A DNA stretch of 64,000 nt from NCBI GenBank assembly GCA_963663165.1, contig OY760175.1:704001-768000 (forward strand), given 5' to 3'. Within the stretch, counting starts at the first letter, position 1. The number at the start of each line of letters is the position of its first letter. Shown here in pieces: positions 12,001-36,000 of the stretch. The DNA is from an uncultured Desulfospira sp. (GTDB lineage Bacteria; Desulfobacterota; Desulfobacteria; Desulfobacterales; Desulfobacteraceae). A program made the position numbers.

Positions 12001-15000
12001 GCTGACCGAAGAGGCCATTGAGTCGGTTTACCAGACCAAGGTCACCGTGGCCCCCAACCCGGTCACCCGAAACCCCTTTGTATTTATCGTAAAAAAAGGA
12101 AACACCCATGACTGACAAACGAGAAGATATCCCTGTGGTCCTGACGGCATTCGGTACAACGGCCAAAGCCTTTGCCACCTACGAAAAAATGGACCGGGTA
12201 TTCAAAGAGACCCTGCCGGACACTCAGATTCACTGGGCTTATTCATCCAGGGTGGTCAAACGGGCCATGCAAAAAAACCATCAACTGGACCTCAAAGATC
12301 CATTAGAAACCCTTCAAATTCTGGCCGATCAGGGCCACACCTGGGCGGTCATGCAGTCCCTGCACCTGGTCTGCGGCCATGAATTTCACCGCCTGATCGT
12401 GGCCCCGCACCATGCCGGTATCACCGGAATCCGGTTTGCCGCCGGCCTGCCGCTGCTTACGGCCCACGATGATTTTGAAAAAACGGCCCAGGCCCTTTCC
12501 CCTATCGTGCCCCAGGACCCTGACCAGGCCCTGGTGCTGGTGGGCCACGGCACGGATCATCCGTCCTGGACCAGCTATCCCGCCTTGGAGACGTTTATGC
12601 GGCGAATATACGGTCCCCGGGTCTTTGTGGGAACCGTGGAATGGTACCCGGGACTTGATCATACCCTTGAGCGGATTATGGCAGCCGGATTCAAGAAGGT
12701 CACCCTGGTCCCCTTTCTTCTAGTGGCCGGGGTCCATTTTAAGGAAGACCTTACCAGGGAAGAGGATTCCTGGCAGAAAACCCTGGAGCGCAACGGGATT
12801 GAGGTTACCCTGGTGGATCAGGGGGTAGGCCAGCTGGACGGCATTACCCGGATTTTCTGTGACCATATTGCAGAGGCTGTAGACGTCATTCCCTTGTAAA
12901 TGGACTTGGGACCTGGGACTTGGGACCTGGGATATGGGACCTGGGATATGGGACTTGGGGATTGCAGTATCCACGGCCTACCCAAGTCCCATATCCATAT
13001 CAATAAGCCGTACGGCTTGTTTTTCTAAACCGGGAGGGGGTAATCCCTTCGTGTTTCCTAAAGCATCGGGCAAAATAAGAGGCATCATTAAACCCCACGG
13101 AAAAACAGGCCTGGGAAATGTTTACGTCCGGAATTTTTAACAGCCGCTTGGCCGCTTCCACCCGTTTGATGTTCAGATACTCCTTAAAGGTCTGCCCTGT
13201 GGCCTGCCTGAAAAGGCGGCTGAAATGGAACCGGCTCAGGCCTGACAGCTCTGCGGCATCGTCAAGGCGAATGTTTTCCATATAATGGGTATCAATAAAG
13301 GCTATGCATTTTTTCAGACGGCGGTCATCGGTGTTAAAGCTCATTGGACCTGAAAAATTGATCAGGGAACGGGTGGAAAATCGCCTTAAATGTTCGATGA
13401 ATAGGGACTGATAATACCGTTTAAGCCGGCTGTTATCCAAAAGGATTTTTCCAAATTTTTCCCTTGATATGGTCAGGCACTCCACCGGTCCTGAGGAAAT
13501 GGCGTCATAAAACGACACGCCTCGTCCAAAAAAAGCCTCTACCCCGAAAAATTCCCCTTTTTCCAAGCTTCCCCTTAAAGTGGTACGGCTGTTTTCTGCG
13601 GGGGCATAAACGTCGATAACGCCGTCAAGGATGTATCCTAAGCAGTCCGGTGTTTCATTTCTTTGAGCAATCATGGTGTAGGGCTCAATCAGGGTGAAAT
13701 CAAATTCGGTTTTAATCAGTTGTGTTAATTCAAAATCGCTAATGCTGTTAAACAGCAGCTCTCCTTTAGTTTGTTCTAAAATTTTCATGACAGAAAAGGC
13801 CCCAAAAAAACAAAAAAATCCGAACAAGCAGGCTTGTCCGGATTTCCGTTTTTAATCCTTTATTTGGTTAACGCGCCCTTACCCTGGGTACGCCAATTCA
13901 TACAGGCTGGTCTTCTGGCTCTCGGATCATCTTACTGGCTGAGCCTTCCCGCCTTCTTACGGCAGTGGCATAGATACAGCGGTCATCCCCGATTACAGCG
14001 GCGGGTCCGTCATTGAGTTTCACAATGTTCCCATTATCCCGGCACGGGCCGGGTACCTGTAATCCTTATTTGTCTGGACCATAAAAACTTAATGGCTAAA
14101 TGTCAATAAATGATTTCATTCTTGATCCTTTTTCTAATCGTTTATTCTAATTTGCCTAAAATAACTTTTACGGGCGAACATGGCGGGCCGAAATCAGATT
14201 TGACATACCATGGGCCGGTAGGGGTCAAATTGGAATCAGCCAGCTTGATTTTTCCCTGTGCATTTACCCGGATATTAATTCTGAATTTATCCGATTCTGC
14301 AGGCTCTGTATCACCACCGTTGATCCGGATGCCGAAATAACCGCCGACCCTGAAAAAAACCCCGTAAAACCGGTGTTCGCCAATACTGCCGTAATACCGT
14401 GGCCTTGCTATGGGACCGCCGACATTGCCGGTAGTATAGATAGAAACCATATCTTCAACATGACCGCCAAGGTAAAGCTCACCCCGGGCGCACCCGTTGA
14501 AGGCCAGATCCTCTTCAGCGGCAATGACAAAGTTTTTGGCATGGGTGCTTGCTGAGCCGACTCTCGGGGGGCCGCTGATGCCAAGCCTGCCGTTATGGGG
14601 GTTCGCCCCTTCAAAATAATATACGGCACCTGAATGGTTCCCGTCATGGGGGCAGAAGATATAATTGTCAGCCCCGAGATAATAGTAACTATAATAGAAG
14701 TTGCCGTCATCATCATACCGGCCGCCTTCCATTGAGGACTCGGTGTAGCTTGGAAAGCTGGCATCGGTCATGGGAATTATCCGGTTTTGACCGCCGGCCT
14801 CGTCTTTAAGTTCTGCCATGATATCATCTAAGTCCTGGGAGGGATATAATTCTTCCTCTCCTGAAGAACAGGCATCTTCTACAGGGCAATGGCTGATGTC
14901 GCCGGCTGCGGTTGCCCGGGTGCCGCCGGTTATTGCAGTGCTGCCTGTACTTGAAAATTCAATCTCCGTATTTGAGTGAATGATGCCGGTATTGTTAAAA

Positions 15001-33000: not shown

Positions 33001-36000
33001 CAGGCAAGGGTCACAGCAGCGGGCCTGTCTTCGATTTTCACGAAGTTCCCTATTAAGCTTAATTTGCAAGCACCCATTCGGCTGCAATGAACCAAAAATC
33101 TTCAAAAAAGTCAATTTTTTTCTTAACTTTTTGGAACTATGACGGTGTGCAACCCTATAAATTAGGATTATTTTGCTGTGTGGAAAACGGGGGAAAGCAG
33201 ATAAAATGGGGGAAGACCCGGTTATTTAACCGGGGGGTTGATGTCGAATTCGCTCATTTTGTAGAGCAGGGTTTTGTAGCTGATCTTTAGAATTTTGGCG
33301 GCCTTGGAGCGGTTCCAGCCCACCTTGTCCAAAACAAAGACAATGACTTCCTTTTCTACCCGGTTGGCGGCCATTTTTTTGATTTTTTTAAGGGAGATGT
33401 CCTGGAACAGTTTTTCAGAACTGGTGGACAAATCAACGAACTGGGAGATGATGGTTACCGATTCAGTGCTGAATTCTCCGGTATCGGTATCCGACTTTTT
33501 GCCCTTGTTTGGTTTTACAACATTTTTCGGGACTTCTGTACCGTCCTTGGGAAGCTCATTGAATATCTTCTCCCAGGAGTTCATCACCATCTGCTTTTTA
33601 ATGCAGTTTTGAAGCTGGCGTACATTTCCCGGCCAGGAATACCGGCACAGTTTTTCCATAATGTCTGTATCTGGTTTGGCCCCGTTGTTTTCAGGGTATT
33701 CAGATTTAAATTTCCGGTAATAGTACTCAACCAGGGCAGGGATGTCTTCTTTGCGTTCCCGTAACGGGGGGATGTCGATTTTGATAATGTTCAGCCGGTA
33801 AAAAAGATCTTCCCGGAATTGCTTTTGTTTGATCCGCTCTTCAAGGTTATGGTTGGTGGCGGCAATGACCCATACATCGGTTTTAAACTCCTGGTCTGAT
33901 CCGAGGGGGGAGAATTCACCGCTTTGCAGGACATGGAGCATTTTGGACTGAAGGGCTATGGGCATGTCCCCGATTTCATCCAGGAAAAGCACGCCTTTGT
34001 TGGCGGTCTGAAATTTGCCGGGCCGTTTTCTGTGGGCACCGGTAAATGCCCCCCTTTCGTATCCGTACAATTCACTTTCAAGAAGGGTTTCCGGCAGGGC
34101 CGCACAATTTATTTTCACAAAATTGCGGGAAGATCTGGTGGACTCGGCGTACAGGTTTTGGGCGACCACCTCCTTGCCGACACCGGTTTCACCGGTGATG
34201 AGGACGTTAAGGCAGGTGTGCGCCACATGGTTGATCAATTCCTTGATCTTTAACATTGATTGACTTACGCCGATTAGAGGTGTGCTCATAAGTATTAACG
34301 TCTTTTTTGTCTACTTCTTTTCCTTGTTTAACAGCTTGGCAACTTTTTCTTCGATGTCAAACAAATCTATAGGCTTAAACAATACCAAGTCAGCTTCCGC
34401 TTCAGAGGCAAGGGCACCGGGGTGGTCTCCATAACCGGTCATGGCAATAATTTTAATTCCCGGGCATTCTTTTTTTGCAATGGAAATAAGACCGACCCCG
34501 CTGATATTCGGCATAACCAGATCCGTTATCAGGCAATGAAATACTTTGGGTTTCTCCTTTAAAATTTTTAATGCGGCAAGACCGTCAATGGCAGTTTTGA
34601 CTTCGTACCCCATTGAATTGAAAAATTCGTAAAAGGTAGACAGGATGTCTTCGTTGTCATCAACTATCAAAAGTCGCAGAGGATTTTCCGGCATTTTTAT
34701 TACCTTAAAATTTCAACGGATTTTATATTGTTAAGTGCATATAATAGTTTTGTTCCGGTTTGCAAGGAAAAAATATGATTTCCCGACTATTTTAAAAAGA
34801 ATCGTATCCGGCACCTTATATAAATTGCCCACTTGAAATATCCTGATCAGATGAAATAGGAGACAGCAATGTAGACAAAAAACAAAACCACAAAAACCAG
34901 TCCCTGGCCTTTGTTCACCCCTTTATACTTATAGGCAAGGACGCCCAGGGCCAGGCAGATAAAAATCATGAAAGGGAACTGGAACAAATGAAGGGACTTG
35001 TCAATATGCATGGGATTGCATATGCCCACAAACCCCATGACCAGGCAGATGTTGAACAGGTTTGATCCCACCACATTGCCGACAGAAATATCGCTTTCCC
35101 CCCTGGCAGCAGCCACGGCCGAGGTGGCAAGTTCGGGCAGGGACGTACCGAGTGCCACCACTGAAATGCCGATAAAGGTCTGGGACAGCCCGATTTTTTC
35201 AGCAAGCCCGATGGCCGTGGAAACCACAAGCTCAGCACCGTAACCGAGCATGCCGACGCCCAGGATAATATAGATAAAGTTTTTTAACAGCTTTTTTGAA
35301 TTGCGCTGGGATGCAAGGTTTTCATTTCCGGCTGAAGGGTCTTTTTTTTCCCTGGCCGTGAGAATCCCGTAGACCAGAAATCCGATCAAAAGGCCGATAA
35401 GGATGATCCCGTCCATGCGGCCGATGGCCCCGTCCAGGCACATCACCCAGAATATAATCGAAACAGCGACCATGTAGGGGATTTCAATGATGGTCACCTG
35501 CCGTTTAACGGAAACCGGCCGGATCATGGCGGAAATTCCGAGAACCAGGGCAATGTTGATGACATTGGAGCCCAGGATATTGCCGATGGAAATGGCACCG
35601 GACCCTTTAACGGCCGCCACCATACTCACCAGAAGTTCCGGTGCCGACGTGGCCAGAGAGACAACGGTCAGCCCGATAATAACCGGTCTTACAGCAAACA
35701 TGACAGCCGTGGAGGCTGCCCCTTCAACCAAAATTTCAGATCCAAAATAAAGCAGGAGCAACCCTGCCGTCAATATCAGTAGCGGTACAATCATGGGGTC
35801 ATTCTTTCTTTTCGCTTTTTACTTAAGCGGTTATCTGCCTTGCGTTAACATAAAATTAATATTATAAGACGTGAATCATAAATCAGGCCGGCCAATTTAT
35901 CAAGCAGGATAACCCCGGCAAGAAAAGAAACAAGGAAGATGTGTATGAAGAAAAGTATGATAAAAGGCACCGGGATGTTTGTTCCCCCTAACCTGGTGAC

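Follow-up and report, generated by a model that had tools for sequence, protein, structure and literature searches.

Cobalamin riboswitches in front of a Tad/Flp pilus operon and two AraC-family regulators in an uncultured Desulfospira sp.

In Listeria, a B12 riboswitch controls the regulator PocR via the antisense RNA AspocR, and PocR governs B12-dependent propanediol use, while the type IV pili of Clostridioides difficile are under the control of a c-di-GMP riboswitch at pilA1. Control by c-di-GMP riboswitches also extends to the PEP-CTERM genes of Methylophaga GP59, PEP-CTERM proteins being tied to exopolysaccharide and biofilm (PMC12530212), and B12 limitation in Bacteroides induces extra surface-exposed B12-binding proteins from riboswitch-controlled capture loci (BtuG, BtuH and BtuJ/DUF4465), the DUF4465 family having been shown to bind B12 (PMC13398666). 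Clustered riboswitches of the AdoCbl, c-di-GMP-I and c-AMP-GMP classes are described for Desulfobacca acetoxidans, and the authors speculate that pili and coenzyme B12 may be connected, the idea being conductive pili (Sherlock et al. 2022, RNA Biol, PMC9481103). No report linking a B12 riboswitch to a Tad pilus was found in the literature searched.

The locus compared here with these systems lies in a 64-kb window, the whole stretch of contig OY760175.1 of an uncultured Desulfospira sp. that was analyzed (window position equals contig position minus 704000; Table 1). Rfam cmscan at the gathering threshold (31.5 for RF00174) recovers the four cobalamin aptamers listed in an earlier note on this DNA, at the same places after subtraction of 704000, with scores of 84.6 to 110.2 bits and E values of 2e-19 to 1e-26; all four cover model positions 1-189 and are thus full length. 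They make up half of the eight RF00174 matches in the 6.74-Mb genome. Of the four, three belong to a complete Tad/Flp locus and share its minus strand, where one precedes flp and the other two precede an araC gene each. The remaining five riboswitches of the genome belong to ordinary B12 genes (salvage, TonB receptors, corrin methylases and lower-ligand genes).

Table 1. Features of the Tad/Flp locus and its surroundings (window positions).
Feature	Position	Strand	Evidence
Cobalamin riboswitch, B12 salvage/uptake operon	7037..7238	+	RF00174 99 bits
B12 salvage/uptake operon (BtuF-CbiZ fusion, BtuF-like, FecCD permease, ABC ATPase, CbiK)	7368..12899	+	Pfam Peripla_BP_2+CbiZ, Peripla_BP_2, FecCD, ABC_tran, CbiK
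AraC_A regulator	13000..13788	-	HTH_18 85.3 bits; cNMP_binding 47.1 bits (cut-off 27.5)
Intrinsic terminator, riboswitch A	13814..13847	-	15-pair hairpin then T-run
Cobalamin riboswitch A	13888..14075	-	RF00174 110.2 bits
TadG-like pilus protein	14142..15587	-	Pfam Tad 35.5 bits; Tad_C 21.1 bits, below 22.1 cut-off
u275	15633..16460	-	Likely start = internal Met, then membrane anchor
u207, cohesin-fold surface protein with PEP-CTERM-like tail	16521..17144	-	AF2 model, pLDDT 90.3
dock525, six-bladed beta-propeller with C-terminal dockerin/TSP3 Ca-binding module	17182..18759	-	Dockerin_1 29.5 bits (cut-off 22.9)
AraC_B regulator	18997..19842	-	HTH_18 87.3 bits; cNMP_binding 20.9 bits, below 27.5 cut-off
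Cobalamin riboswitch B	19946..20174	-	RF00174 98.4 bits
tad operon (flp, A24 peptidase, tadE x2, cpaB x2, pilN protein, secretin, tadZ, cpaF, tadB, tadC, TPR, 99-aa protein)	20274..32651	-	Pfam
Intrinsic terminator, flp riboswitch	32791..32823	-	14-pair hairpin then T9
Cobalamin riboswitch, flp leader	32883..33092	-	RF00174 84.6 bits
Candidate operator AGGATTATTTTGCTG	33164..33178	+	Upstream of flp-riboswitch promoter; motif derived from other genomes
Sigma-54 activator without receiver domain, and separate receiver protein	33222..34694	-	Sigma54_activat 230 bits, HTH_8, Response_reg

Intrinsic terminators form the expression platform after riboswitch A and after the flp riboswitch, the latter being the hairpin to which the earlier note had drawn attention. 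Riboswitch A has a promoter-like TTGACA-17-TATGGT at 14106-14078, and its terminator has a folding energy of -18.5 kcal/mol. In the flp leader, TTGACT-17-TTCATT (read from the sequence) stands directly upstream of the aptamer, and the terminator, about 60 nt past it, is identical in the sister species (G001), with which the leader shares 92% mean column identity. Neither an ORF between this promoter and flp nor a terminator between the leader element and flp is present. A hairpin with a T-run also follows the aptamer of the salvage operon, at 82 nt. For riboswitch B, no terminator-like hairpin was found within 230 nt and no expression platform was recognized, and the promoter scan gave no promoter-like site in the stretch that separates it from the tad operon's end. 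Among the aptamer-gene distances given previously, those of flp (231 nt to its ATG) and of AraC_B (103 nt to the ATG at 19842, with a GAGGAG ribosome-binding site) hold. The 61 nt given for AraC_A do not, as they refer to a TTG at 13827 that sits inside the hairpin of the terminator (13847-13814), and a start at ATG 13788, which is 100 nt away from the aptamer, is therefore likelier.

The Tad/Flp gene content described before was recovered by Pfam: Flp_Fap (32463-32651), Peptidase_A24, two TadE, two RcpC/CpaB, secretin, ParA-like/TadZ, T2SSE (CpaF), two T2SSF, TPR and Tad, all on the minus strand, besides a pilN protein of 139 aa. The set required for a Tad (type IVc) pilus is complete (Flp, A24 prepilin peptidase, TadE/F, CpaB/RcpC, secretin, TadZ/CpaE, TadA/CpaF, TadB, TadC, TadD-like TPR and TadG), with all components above the Pfam cut-off except the receiver part of TadZ (25.9 against 30.2 bits), and homologues of the operon keep the same order in G001, G011 and G018. 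The genes for a sigma-54 activator and a receiver protein are located upstream of the flp leader on the same strand. Homologous sigma-54 activators flank Tad loci without riboswitches.

Both regulators have the AraC/XylS C-terminal double helix-turn-helix (HTH_18), and AraC_A is 89% identical in the sister species. They had been labelled PocR-like, a name that is better dropped: their N-terminal domain is of the cNMP-binding/CRP-like kind, in AraC_B at a score below the cut-off, and the Pfam search gave no PocR domain in either protein at E<=0.01. In AraC_A this domain is predicted to be a cNMP_binding beta-barrel (PF00027) of the CRP/FNR type, which scores 37.6 and 40.4 bits in the homologues of G011 and G018. 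Upstream of the flp riboswitch, AGGATTATTTTGCTG is the sole match to the operator motif in the window at up to one mismatch. None of the other seven riboswitches of the genome has a good match upstream, and the site may act as an operator. Since the motif is also modestly enriched (7 versus 3) in a congener that lacks both this AraC family and Flp, its link to the AraC proteins is unproven.

Behind riboswitch B, araC is followed by the beta-propeller-dockerin gene and the cohesin-fold gene, with TadG further on. The AF2 model of dock525 (pLDDT 90.3) has propeller structural matches at Z 22-25, and the protein has 37 full-length homologues besides itself. For the u207 model, every one of the best 19 structural matches is a cohesin, at Z 10.0-13.2 and over 128-145 aligned residues. 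The C-terminus of u207, VPVPAGIWLMFSGLIGICGLRRYNK, reaches just E 0.29 for PEP-CTERM in Pfam, and BLAST aligns this tail with the PEP-CTERM tails of DUF4465 proteins. As modelled, u207 and dock525 constitute a cohesin-dockerin pair, with putative mutual binding. A terminator-like hairpin (16495-16467) lies upstream of u275, for which the Pfam search gave no match.

The arrangement of riboswitch and flp claimed for the sister species is borne out (86.8 bits), and the four riboswitches all recur in this species without a change of order. Direct riboswitch-flp layouts, with no AraC gene between, occur in this and three other genera (G290 120.9, G072 100.7 and G185 44.2 bits), and a hairpin with a T-run is present in all four such leaders tested (G000, i.e. 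this genome, G072, G290 and G185). In a 401-genome sample of the order, RF00174 immediately precedes the AraC homologue in the same orientation at 11 of 15 loci, and Flp_Fap is encoded by 11 of the 15 genomes with an AraC homologue, against 50 of the 401. A wider survey with one genome per species, in which the genomes are related and thus not independent samples, found the riboswitch before AraC at 27 of 32 Desulfobacterota-labelled loci, 14 of them with at least two Tad proteins in the fetched span, and a riboswitch of any kind at none of 48 loci from other phyla. The riboswitch-AraC unit leads into flp (G011, L112-L114, L120, L121), is divergent from it (G018, L108, L122, L135, L138, G231, G105; L135 is from the cultured Desulfosarcina cetonica JCM 12296) or lies at the distal end of the tad genes (G271, G317, G065, G161). 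Across genomes, 30 of 35 leaders have a hairpin with a T-run 68-127 nt past the aptamer. At 38 of 40 further Flp loci no riboswitch was found in the fetched span, so that the link is limited to a subset, 10 of the 50 Flp-bearing genomes.

The Tad/Flp locus is probably part of a cobamide-limitation regulon of a Desulfospira-type sulfate reducer, in which plentiful AdoCbl would shut off the pilus together with its regulators. A coupling of the pilus locus to cobamide status, as the earlier note had proposed, is supported by the conservation of the riboswitch before flp or AraC beside Tad loci in many genera and by the frequency of terminators noted above. The switches are presumably OFF switches. 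When adenosylcobalamin is plentiful, it would bind the three class-I aptamers; transcription from the promoter of the flp riboswitch would end at the terminator and the 14-gene flp-tad operon would not be made, and a similar terminator would act in the AraC_A leader. In the AraC_B leader, without a terminator, control is probably translational or exerted on read-through from the tad operon, and would shut down AraC_B, the beta-propeller-dockerin protein and the anchor protein with the cohesin fold, as well as TadG further on. When cobamides are scarce, all three switches would open and both AraC/CRP-like regulators be made. Their most likely targets are the flp promoter and genes for surface proteins elsewhere, which would be a feed-forward design; the AraC proteins may activate the pilus genes. 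The linkage in many relatives points to a connection, not described before, of cell-surface structures with B12 shortage. The system probably serves cobamide scavenging or attachment, or possibly aggregation. The company of the locus (DUF4465 and PEP-CTERM surface proteins, both often encoded in such loci of relatives, and the propeller-dockerin and cohesin fold here) points more towards surface cobamide capture than towards partner attachment alone, the earlier note having suggested attachment to cobamide producers.

It is conceivable, though unlikely, that the response to B12 is confined to the regulators and the accessory genes for surface proteins, with a separate promoter for flp in the spacer past the riboswitch terminator, making the pilus at most indirectly B12-dependent. 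The terminator-to-flp spacer (140 nt here, 140-250 nt in all four genera) could hold one and, between this genome and its sister species, has diverged more than any other part of the leader, but in 32651-32790 the promoter scan lists nothing sigma-70-like, the leader contains no sigma-54 consensus at up to two mismatches, and a sigma-54-like GG-N10-GC after the T-run is absent from the sister species. A perfect TATAAT (read by eye) does occur about 40 nt before flp in G072, and the riboswitch is more widely conserved before AraC than before flp; against this, a promoter, aptamer and terminator without an ORF have no other obvious target than flp, and the layout recurs in four genera.

A further alternative, also improbable to us, concerns the meaning of the signal: the cobamide signal may be non-nutritional and report neighbors or community state, the pilus serving aggregation or syntrophy rather than cobamide acquisition. 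The genome encodes CbiD, CbiC, CobD/CbiB, CbiK and a riboswitch-controlled corrin methylase operon, and the organism is therefore probably itself a cobamide producer, which agrees with such a signal and appears to weaken a simple 'starving auxotroph' story. Moreover, c-di-GMP riboswitches, which report lifestyle, are found in the same loci (G011; G040, in tandem with the B12 switch) and, in this genome, before PEP-CTERM genes, whose products have the biofilm connection cited above. However, the adjoining salvage/uptake operon points to acquisition, as do the recurring DUF4465 proteins, present alone or with a partner family in 11 of the 32 surveyed AraC loci. In the sister species the operon runs from riboswitch B through AraC_B and TadG to DUF4465; in our window, an HMM built from nine DUF4465 proteins gave no match and the partner protein is not encoded either, and the single DUF4465 copy of the genome is at C1:3159374-3159916. 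The two readings are compatible.

That the flp-leader element is mainly a riboswitch-controlled non-coding RNA, as EutX/Rli55 is, whose long form titrates a regulator rather than extending into flp, is very improbable. The element does combine a promoter and a terminator of its own with the lack of an ORF, its immediate upstream neighbor is a sigma-54 activator gene, and the 11-nt CCCATCCCAAG just past the T-run is complementary to CTTGGGATGGG of the aptamer and paired with it in the minimum-free-energy fold, but flp comes next in the same orientation without an intervening terminator, the analysis identified no motif to which an RNA-binding regulator would bind, and the simpler cis reading covers the same facts.

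Regulation of the Tad/Flp locus by cobamide limitation, the reading we prefer, has partial precedents. Like the AspocR/PocR system of Listeria, it would let a B12 riboswitch decide whether an AraC-family regulator is made, but here the aptamer is in cis in the regulator's own leader, the regulators are CRP-like instead of PocR-type, and a pilus locus is concerned. What it shares with C. difficile pilA1 and Methylophaga GP59 is a pilin or surface-protein gene whose leader carries a riboswitch, and c-di-GMP switches co-occur in the loci considered here; the ligand, however, is a coenzyme and not, as described there, a second messenger. The Desulfobacca acetoxidans cluster (PMC9481103) resembles it in having several AdoCbl riboswitches, each followed by a terminator, within a few kb, together with cyclic-dinucleotide switches, in a member of the Desulfobacterota, whereas the available text of that report contains no gene names, Tad/Flp operon, AraC regulator or conservation survey. 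As in the Bacteroides BtuG/BtuH/BtuJ loci, DUF4465 homologues stand behind B12 riboswitches in relatives of the Desulfospira locus, but the lipoprotein anchors are replaced by PEP-CTERM tails or cohesin/dockerin modules, no TonB receptor is found in the locus, and a Tad pilus and AraC regulators under riboswitch control are linked with it. Finally, the AdoCbl riboswitches of btuB and of cob/cbi operons (RF00174) belong to the same full-length aptamer family, with a transcription-terminating platform and the predicted OFF type, but in the Desulfospira locus control would fall on a pilin operon and on two transcription factors instead of on B12 enzymes, transporters or B12-independent isozymes.

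Compared with Rfam by cmscan, the window yields four cobalamin aptamers (RF00174) of full length, half of the eight in the 6.74-Mb genome and all within one 26-kb stretch. The plus-strand aptamer precedes a salvage/uptake operon encoding a BtuF-CbiZ fusion, a BtuF-like protein, a FecCD permease, an ABC ATPase and CbiK, and the three minus-strand riboswitches all belong to one co-directional string of 22 genes. This string opens at its 5' end with genes for a receiver protein and a sigma-54 activator, followed by riboswitch 'flp', the pilin gene flp, and genes for an A24 prepilin peptidase, two TadE and two CpaB proteins, a pilN protein, a secretin, TadZ, CpaF, TadB, TadC, a TPR protein and a 99-aa protein. 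Riboswitch B then precedes the regulator gene AraC_B and genes for a 525-aa dockerin protein (dock525), a 207-aa protein (u207), a 275-aa protein and a TadG-like protein, after which riboswitch A precedes a second regulator gene, AraC_A. The Rfam scan confirms the proposal of the earlier note that riboswitches stand before the flp operon and both AraC genes, and this riboswitch-Tad arrangement is real and not a chance effect. Just upstream of the B12/Tad region, two tRNA genes are followed by a phage-type integrase gene, which may mark the edge of an integrated element.

Positions of riboswitches, leader elements and flanking genes in the window
Feature	Position	Strand	Details
tRNA gene	3660-3731
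tRNA gene	3737-3808
Phage-type integrase gene	4604-5749	-
Aptamer of salvage/uptake operon	7037-7238	+	RF00174, 99 bits
AraC_A, ATG start	13788
Terminator, riboswitch A	13847-13814		15-pair hairpin
Riboswitch A	13888-14075	-	RF00174, 110.2 bits
Promoter, riboswitch A	14106-14078		TTGACA-17-TATGGT
Riboswitch B	19946-20174	-	RF00174, 98.4 bits
CCCATCCCAAG	32770-32781
Terminator, riboswitch 'flp'	32823-32791		14-pair hairpin, nine T
Riboswitch 'flp'	32883-33092	-	RF00174, 84.6 bits
CTTGGGATGGG	32939-32949		in aptamer core
Candidate operator match	33164-33178		at most one mismatch

Riboswitch 'flp' has a TTGACT-17-TTCATT promoter immediately on its 5' side, and its terminator is followed by a 140-nt spacer, a strong ribosome-binding site and flp. 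Compared to the sister species (G001), aptamer and terminator are near-identical, while the spacer before flp has diverged most. The stretch CCCATCCCAAG, located just 3' of the terminator T-run, is exactly complementary to CTTGGGATGGG within the aptamer core, and this 11-base complementarity is near-conserved in the sister species and paired in the minimum-free-energy fold. A sigma-54 promoter after the flp terminator, seen by eye as GG-N10-GC, was rejected, the pattern being absent from the sister species and TGGCAC-N5-TTGCW giving no site at two or fewer mismatches in 32650-33230. Riboswitch A is likewise equipped with a promoter and a terminator. The distance of 61 nt earlier reported between this aptamer and AraC_A leads to a TTG codon, and as this codon falls within the terminator hairpin the ATG is a better start. 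No recognisable promoter of its own and no terminator were found for riboswitch B, which may be transcribed by read-through from the tad operon and exert its effect on translation. Across genomes, a hairpin with a T-run occurs 68-127 nt 3' of the aptamer in 30 of the 35 leaders examined, and every leader tested in which a riboswitch leads to flp contains a promoter-like site and a terminator.

In order to follow the arrangement from the pilin, the neighbourhoods of Flp_Fap, encoded in 50 of 401 sampled genomes of the order, were scanned with an nhmmer profile of 27 Rfam-confirmed aptamers (not with Infernal) and then checked against Rfam. The profile recovers all four window aptamers, and scores the aptamer of G185 at 19 bits compared to 44.2 bits in Rfam; weak copies may therefore be missed. 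In 10 of the 50 Flp genomes a riboswitch was detected within the Tad locus or next to it (G000, the genome studied here, and G065, G072, G105, G161, G185, G231, G271, G290 and G317), the riboswitch-negative remainder being an upper bound on true absence. The flp gene follows a riboswitch directly, without an intervening AraC gene, in G290 (120.9 bits), G072 (100.7 bits), G185 (44.2 bits) and the sister species (86.8 bits), the last as the earlier note had described it. No AraC homologue was found at 40 further Flp loci fetched. Since related genomes are not independent, such counts indicate recurrence and carry no statistics. The predicted cobamide control of the Tad pilus locus is well supported by genome comparison.

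Homologues of AraC_A (E<=1e-25) occur in 15 genomes of the same sample, 11 of which also encode Flp_Fap. Outside this genome, RF00174 lies directly upstream on the same strand at 11 of the 15 homologue loci, and Tad genes adjoin most of these in wider spans. An alignment of 12 proteins, searched against one genome from each of 185,579 species, yielded 80 AraC loci, for which riboswitches were counted with the same nhmmer profile. Among the 32 labelled Desulfobacterota, 27 have a riboswitch no more than 700 nt upstream on the same strand, 16 encode two or more Tad proteins in the fetched span, 14 have both Tad and riboswitch, and 11 have DUF4465 and/or a second PEP-CTERM protein family seen with it in relatives (the 'partner' family). 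The other 48 loci gave no riboswitch anywhere in about 0.8 Mb, again an upper bound on true absence. Six of them, in Woeseiaceae (L141-L143, L163, L177) and Rhodospirillaceae (L152), nevertheless have Tad genes adjoining the AraC gene, and the AraC-tad neighbourhood thus reaches beyond the B12 link. The carriers are Desulfospira, Desulfobacula, Desulfobacter, Desulfobacterium, Desulfosarcina, Syntrophobacteraceae, Desulfatiglandales and one Desulfobulbus MAG, and three layouts are seen: riboswitch, AraC and flp in series, riboswitch-AraC divergent from flp, and riboswitch-AraC distal in the tad operon. The cultured strain Desulfosarcina cetonica JCM 12296 (L135) carries the riboswitch-AraC-flp module, and the B12-pilus idea is therefore directly testable. 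Two Syntrophobacteraceae loci, L120 and L121, hold four and three B12 riboswitches, respectively, within 10 kb; behind these lie AraC-flp-tad, an operon for a cobalamin adenosyltransferase, and a methylmalonyl-CoA-mutase-like gene with a B12-binding subunit. It is unusual for a B12-dependent enzyme to stand behind a B12 riboswitch.

Both regulators of the window contain the AraC double helix-turn-helix and share just 27% identity. The description of them as PocR-like did not hold, as no PocR domain is reported in either and the N-terminal part instead matches a cNMP-binding (CRP-like) barrel, at 47.1 bits in AraC_A and at 20.9 bits, under the cut-off, in AraC_B. Some AraC proteins encoded behind B12 riboswitches are short (119-171 aa) and comprise nothing but the HTH; they occur in L030/L127 (G074, 5716-6887), L036 (G076) and L128; in G074 two aptamers in series (51.7 and 102.9 bits) lie upstream of one such gene. 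In L036, identical group II intron copies (270-2405 and 14595-16730; both RF02005 at 100.9 bits and RF00029 at 43.5 bits) flank the riboswitch/AraC/DUF4465 region.

Behind the secondary riboswitches and AraC, DUF4465 proteins with PEP-CTERM tails occur repeatedly, alongside the partner family, other PEP-CTERM proteins and proteins with a C-terminal dockerin/TSP3 module of the dock525 type. DUF4465 is the BtuJ family, for divergent members of which B12 binding has been shown (PMC13398666). In the sister species the operon reads riboswitch B, AraC_B, TadG and DUF4465, and at the margin of the Tad locus of G011 a DUF4465 gene lies behind a c-di-GMP-I riboswitch. In G040 (L026/L118, 344-3011) a B12 riboswitch and AraC are followed by a second B12 riboswitch in tandem with a c-di-GMP-I-GGC riboswitch and a DUF4465-PEP-CTERM gene, a tandem resembling the AdoCbl/c-di-GMP 'NOT A AND B' gates of Sherlock et al. 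2022 (PMC9481103). The 64-kb window contains no DUF4465 or partner gene, the single DUF4465 copy of the genome being located elsewhere, and dock525 and u207 occupy their place. In its AF2 model (pLDDT 90.3), dock525 forms a propeller of six blades and carries a dockerin tail. The structural comparison does not single out a BtuG-like B12 propeller: the model is equally near to many unrelated propellers, among them AA12/PQQ dehydrogenases, DFPase and lactonases (Z 22-25), and BtuG is not among the matches listed. The u207 model (pLDDT 90.3) has cohesins as its top 19 structural matches (Z 10.0-13.2) and a PEP-CTERM-like tail; a full HMMER scan brought up 57 matches, the protein of the window itself among them, compared to one relative from a word-index search. 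The adjacency of the dockerin gene and the gene for this cohesin-fold anchor suggests that the propeller is displayed on the surface via a putative dockerin-cohesin pairing. The predicted complex of the two domains, with a best score of 0.28 against a mark of 0.32, weighs neither way.

The four riboswitches outside the window precede corrin methylases, two TonB-dependent receptors with ExbB, a ThiC-family (Bza-like) enzyme with CobT, and an operon (L191, G000 C1:4452500-4459500, 934-1944) encoding a glycosyltransferase of family 3 and an ADH-CobT fusion and ending with a 336-aa AraC-family protein with a different N-terminal part. Given this gene content and the presence of CbiD, CbiC and CobD/CbiB, the organism probably both makes and salvages cobamides. 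A further set of genes is marked by the motif AGGAYTWTYTTGCGR, which is common to the flp-AraC intergenic regions of divergent loci and present twice, at 21-nt spacing, in L108. In the window it has one match with at most one mismatch, about 50 nt 5' of the -35 of the flp-riboswitch promoter, and none of the other seven riboswitch promoters of the genome has a match. Matches at up to three mismatches in the window (27 found, 22.8 expected) and exact 12-mers genome-wide (8, compared to 7 for the reversed pattern) are not above or barely differ from the controls, and those in control AraC loci are coding look-alikes within the 3' end of the AraC gene. Only the tandem arrangement (spacing 19-22 nt; nine pairs at seven places, none in the reversed genome) and the 14-mer (15 versus 2 in the control, and 15 versus 3 in the sister species) stand out. 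Downstream of the tandem pairs are an operon for a corrinoid protein, a URO-D methyltransferase and a TRAP transporter, the DUF4465 gene, PEP-CTERM genes, an operon with a dockerin protein, a gene for a 266-aa unknown adjoining an MCP gene, and a GDPD gene. Five of the tandem repeats are at C1:966646, 2864288, 3160370, 3626279 and 4581871. Two of the PEP-CTERM genes show 41% and 51% identity to riboswitch-linked genes of L124. The first operon (L192, G000 C1:962500-971500, 4147-8986), a B12-dependent methyl-transfer system, is preceded at about 250 nt by a perfect AGGACTTTTTTGCTA repeat with 20-nt spacing. At an eighth place (L195, G000 C1:5285500-5290500, 2316-2478) a c-di-GMP-I riboswitch (45.6 bits) separates the repeats from a pair of PEP-CTERM genes downstream, one with 51% identity to a gene linked to a riboswitch in a Desulfatiglandales genome. 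The motif shows no enrichment in other genera, nor in any of G011, G018, G065, G231, G005, G013, G006 and G003. A congener lacking this AraC family (by profile search) and Flp still has it 7 times versus 3 in the control, one tandem pair immediately preceding the promoter of a riboswitch that has a 680-aa ORF behind it, and this persistence weakens the case for AraC as the motif binder. Within this genus the motif is genuine, is found at B12-related and surface genes and is a candidate operator.

A possible, if rather doubtful, reading is that riboswitch-gated AraC/CRP-like regulators carry the cobamide signal in trans, and together with the Tad pilus and the displayed propeller constitute a cobamide-capture apparatus. 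The B12 riboswitches would decide whether the regulators are made, and these would relay the signal to riboswitch-free promoters that bear tandem AGGAYTWTYTTGCKR repeats at a spacing of 20-21 nt. In this genome such targets would comprise the only DUF4465 B12-binder, PEP-CTERM/dockerin surface proteins and the corrinoid methyltransferase operon, one marked surface gene set also lying behind a c-di-GMP riboswitch, with a single site before the flp riboswitch promoter. Pilus, cohesin-dockerin-displayed propeller and regulon would then form an apparatus at the surface, switched on under B12 shortage. Cobalamin riboswitches are known to target B12 synthesis, transport and B12-independent isozymes. 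If the link holds, an adhesive pilus and transcription factors would be a new output class, with a riboswitch feeding a protein-based regulon and cofactor economy tied to surface behaviour in sediment sulfate reducers. The partner family, the propeller-dockerin protein and the cohesin-fold anchor would be candidate cobamide-capture parts outside Bacteroides.

New points are the conserved core formed by riboswitch-controlled AraC/CRP-like regulators, their spread across Desulfobacterota, their company of B12-binding and surface-display proteins, and the candidate trans-acting regulon. Literature searches outside subscription journals found none linking a cobalamin/B12 riboswitch to a Flp/Tad pilus, or to pili and AraC. 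Those papers on cobalamin riboswitches and AraC that were examined contain nothing relevant to AraC control, the Tad term in the paper examined for 'tight adherence', B12 and riboswitch is confined to its reference list, and papers found for cobalamin riboswitch and PEP-CTERM concern c-di-GMP switches before PEP-CTERM genes. In the sections available of Rodionov et al. 2004 (PMC545781), the delta-proteobacterial B12-element targets are synthesis, transport and nrdDG only. The nearest precedent for a B12-pilus link is Sherlock et al. 2022 (PMC9481103), who report a 7-kb region of Desulfobacca acetoxidans with seven riboswitches and ask whether pili and B12 connect.
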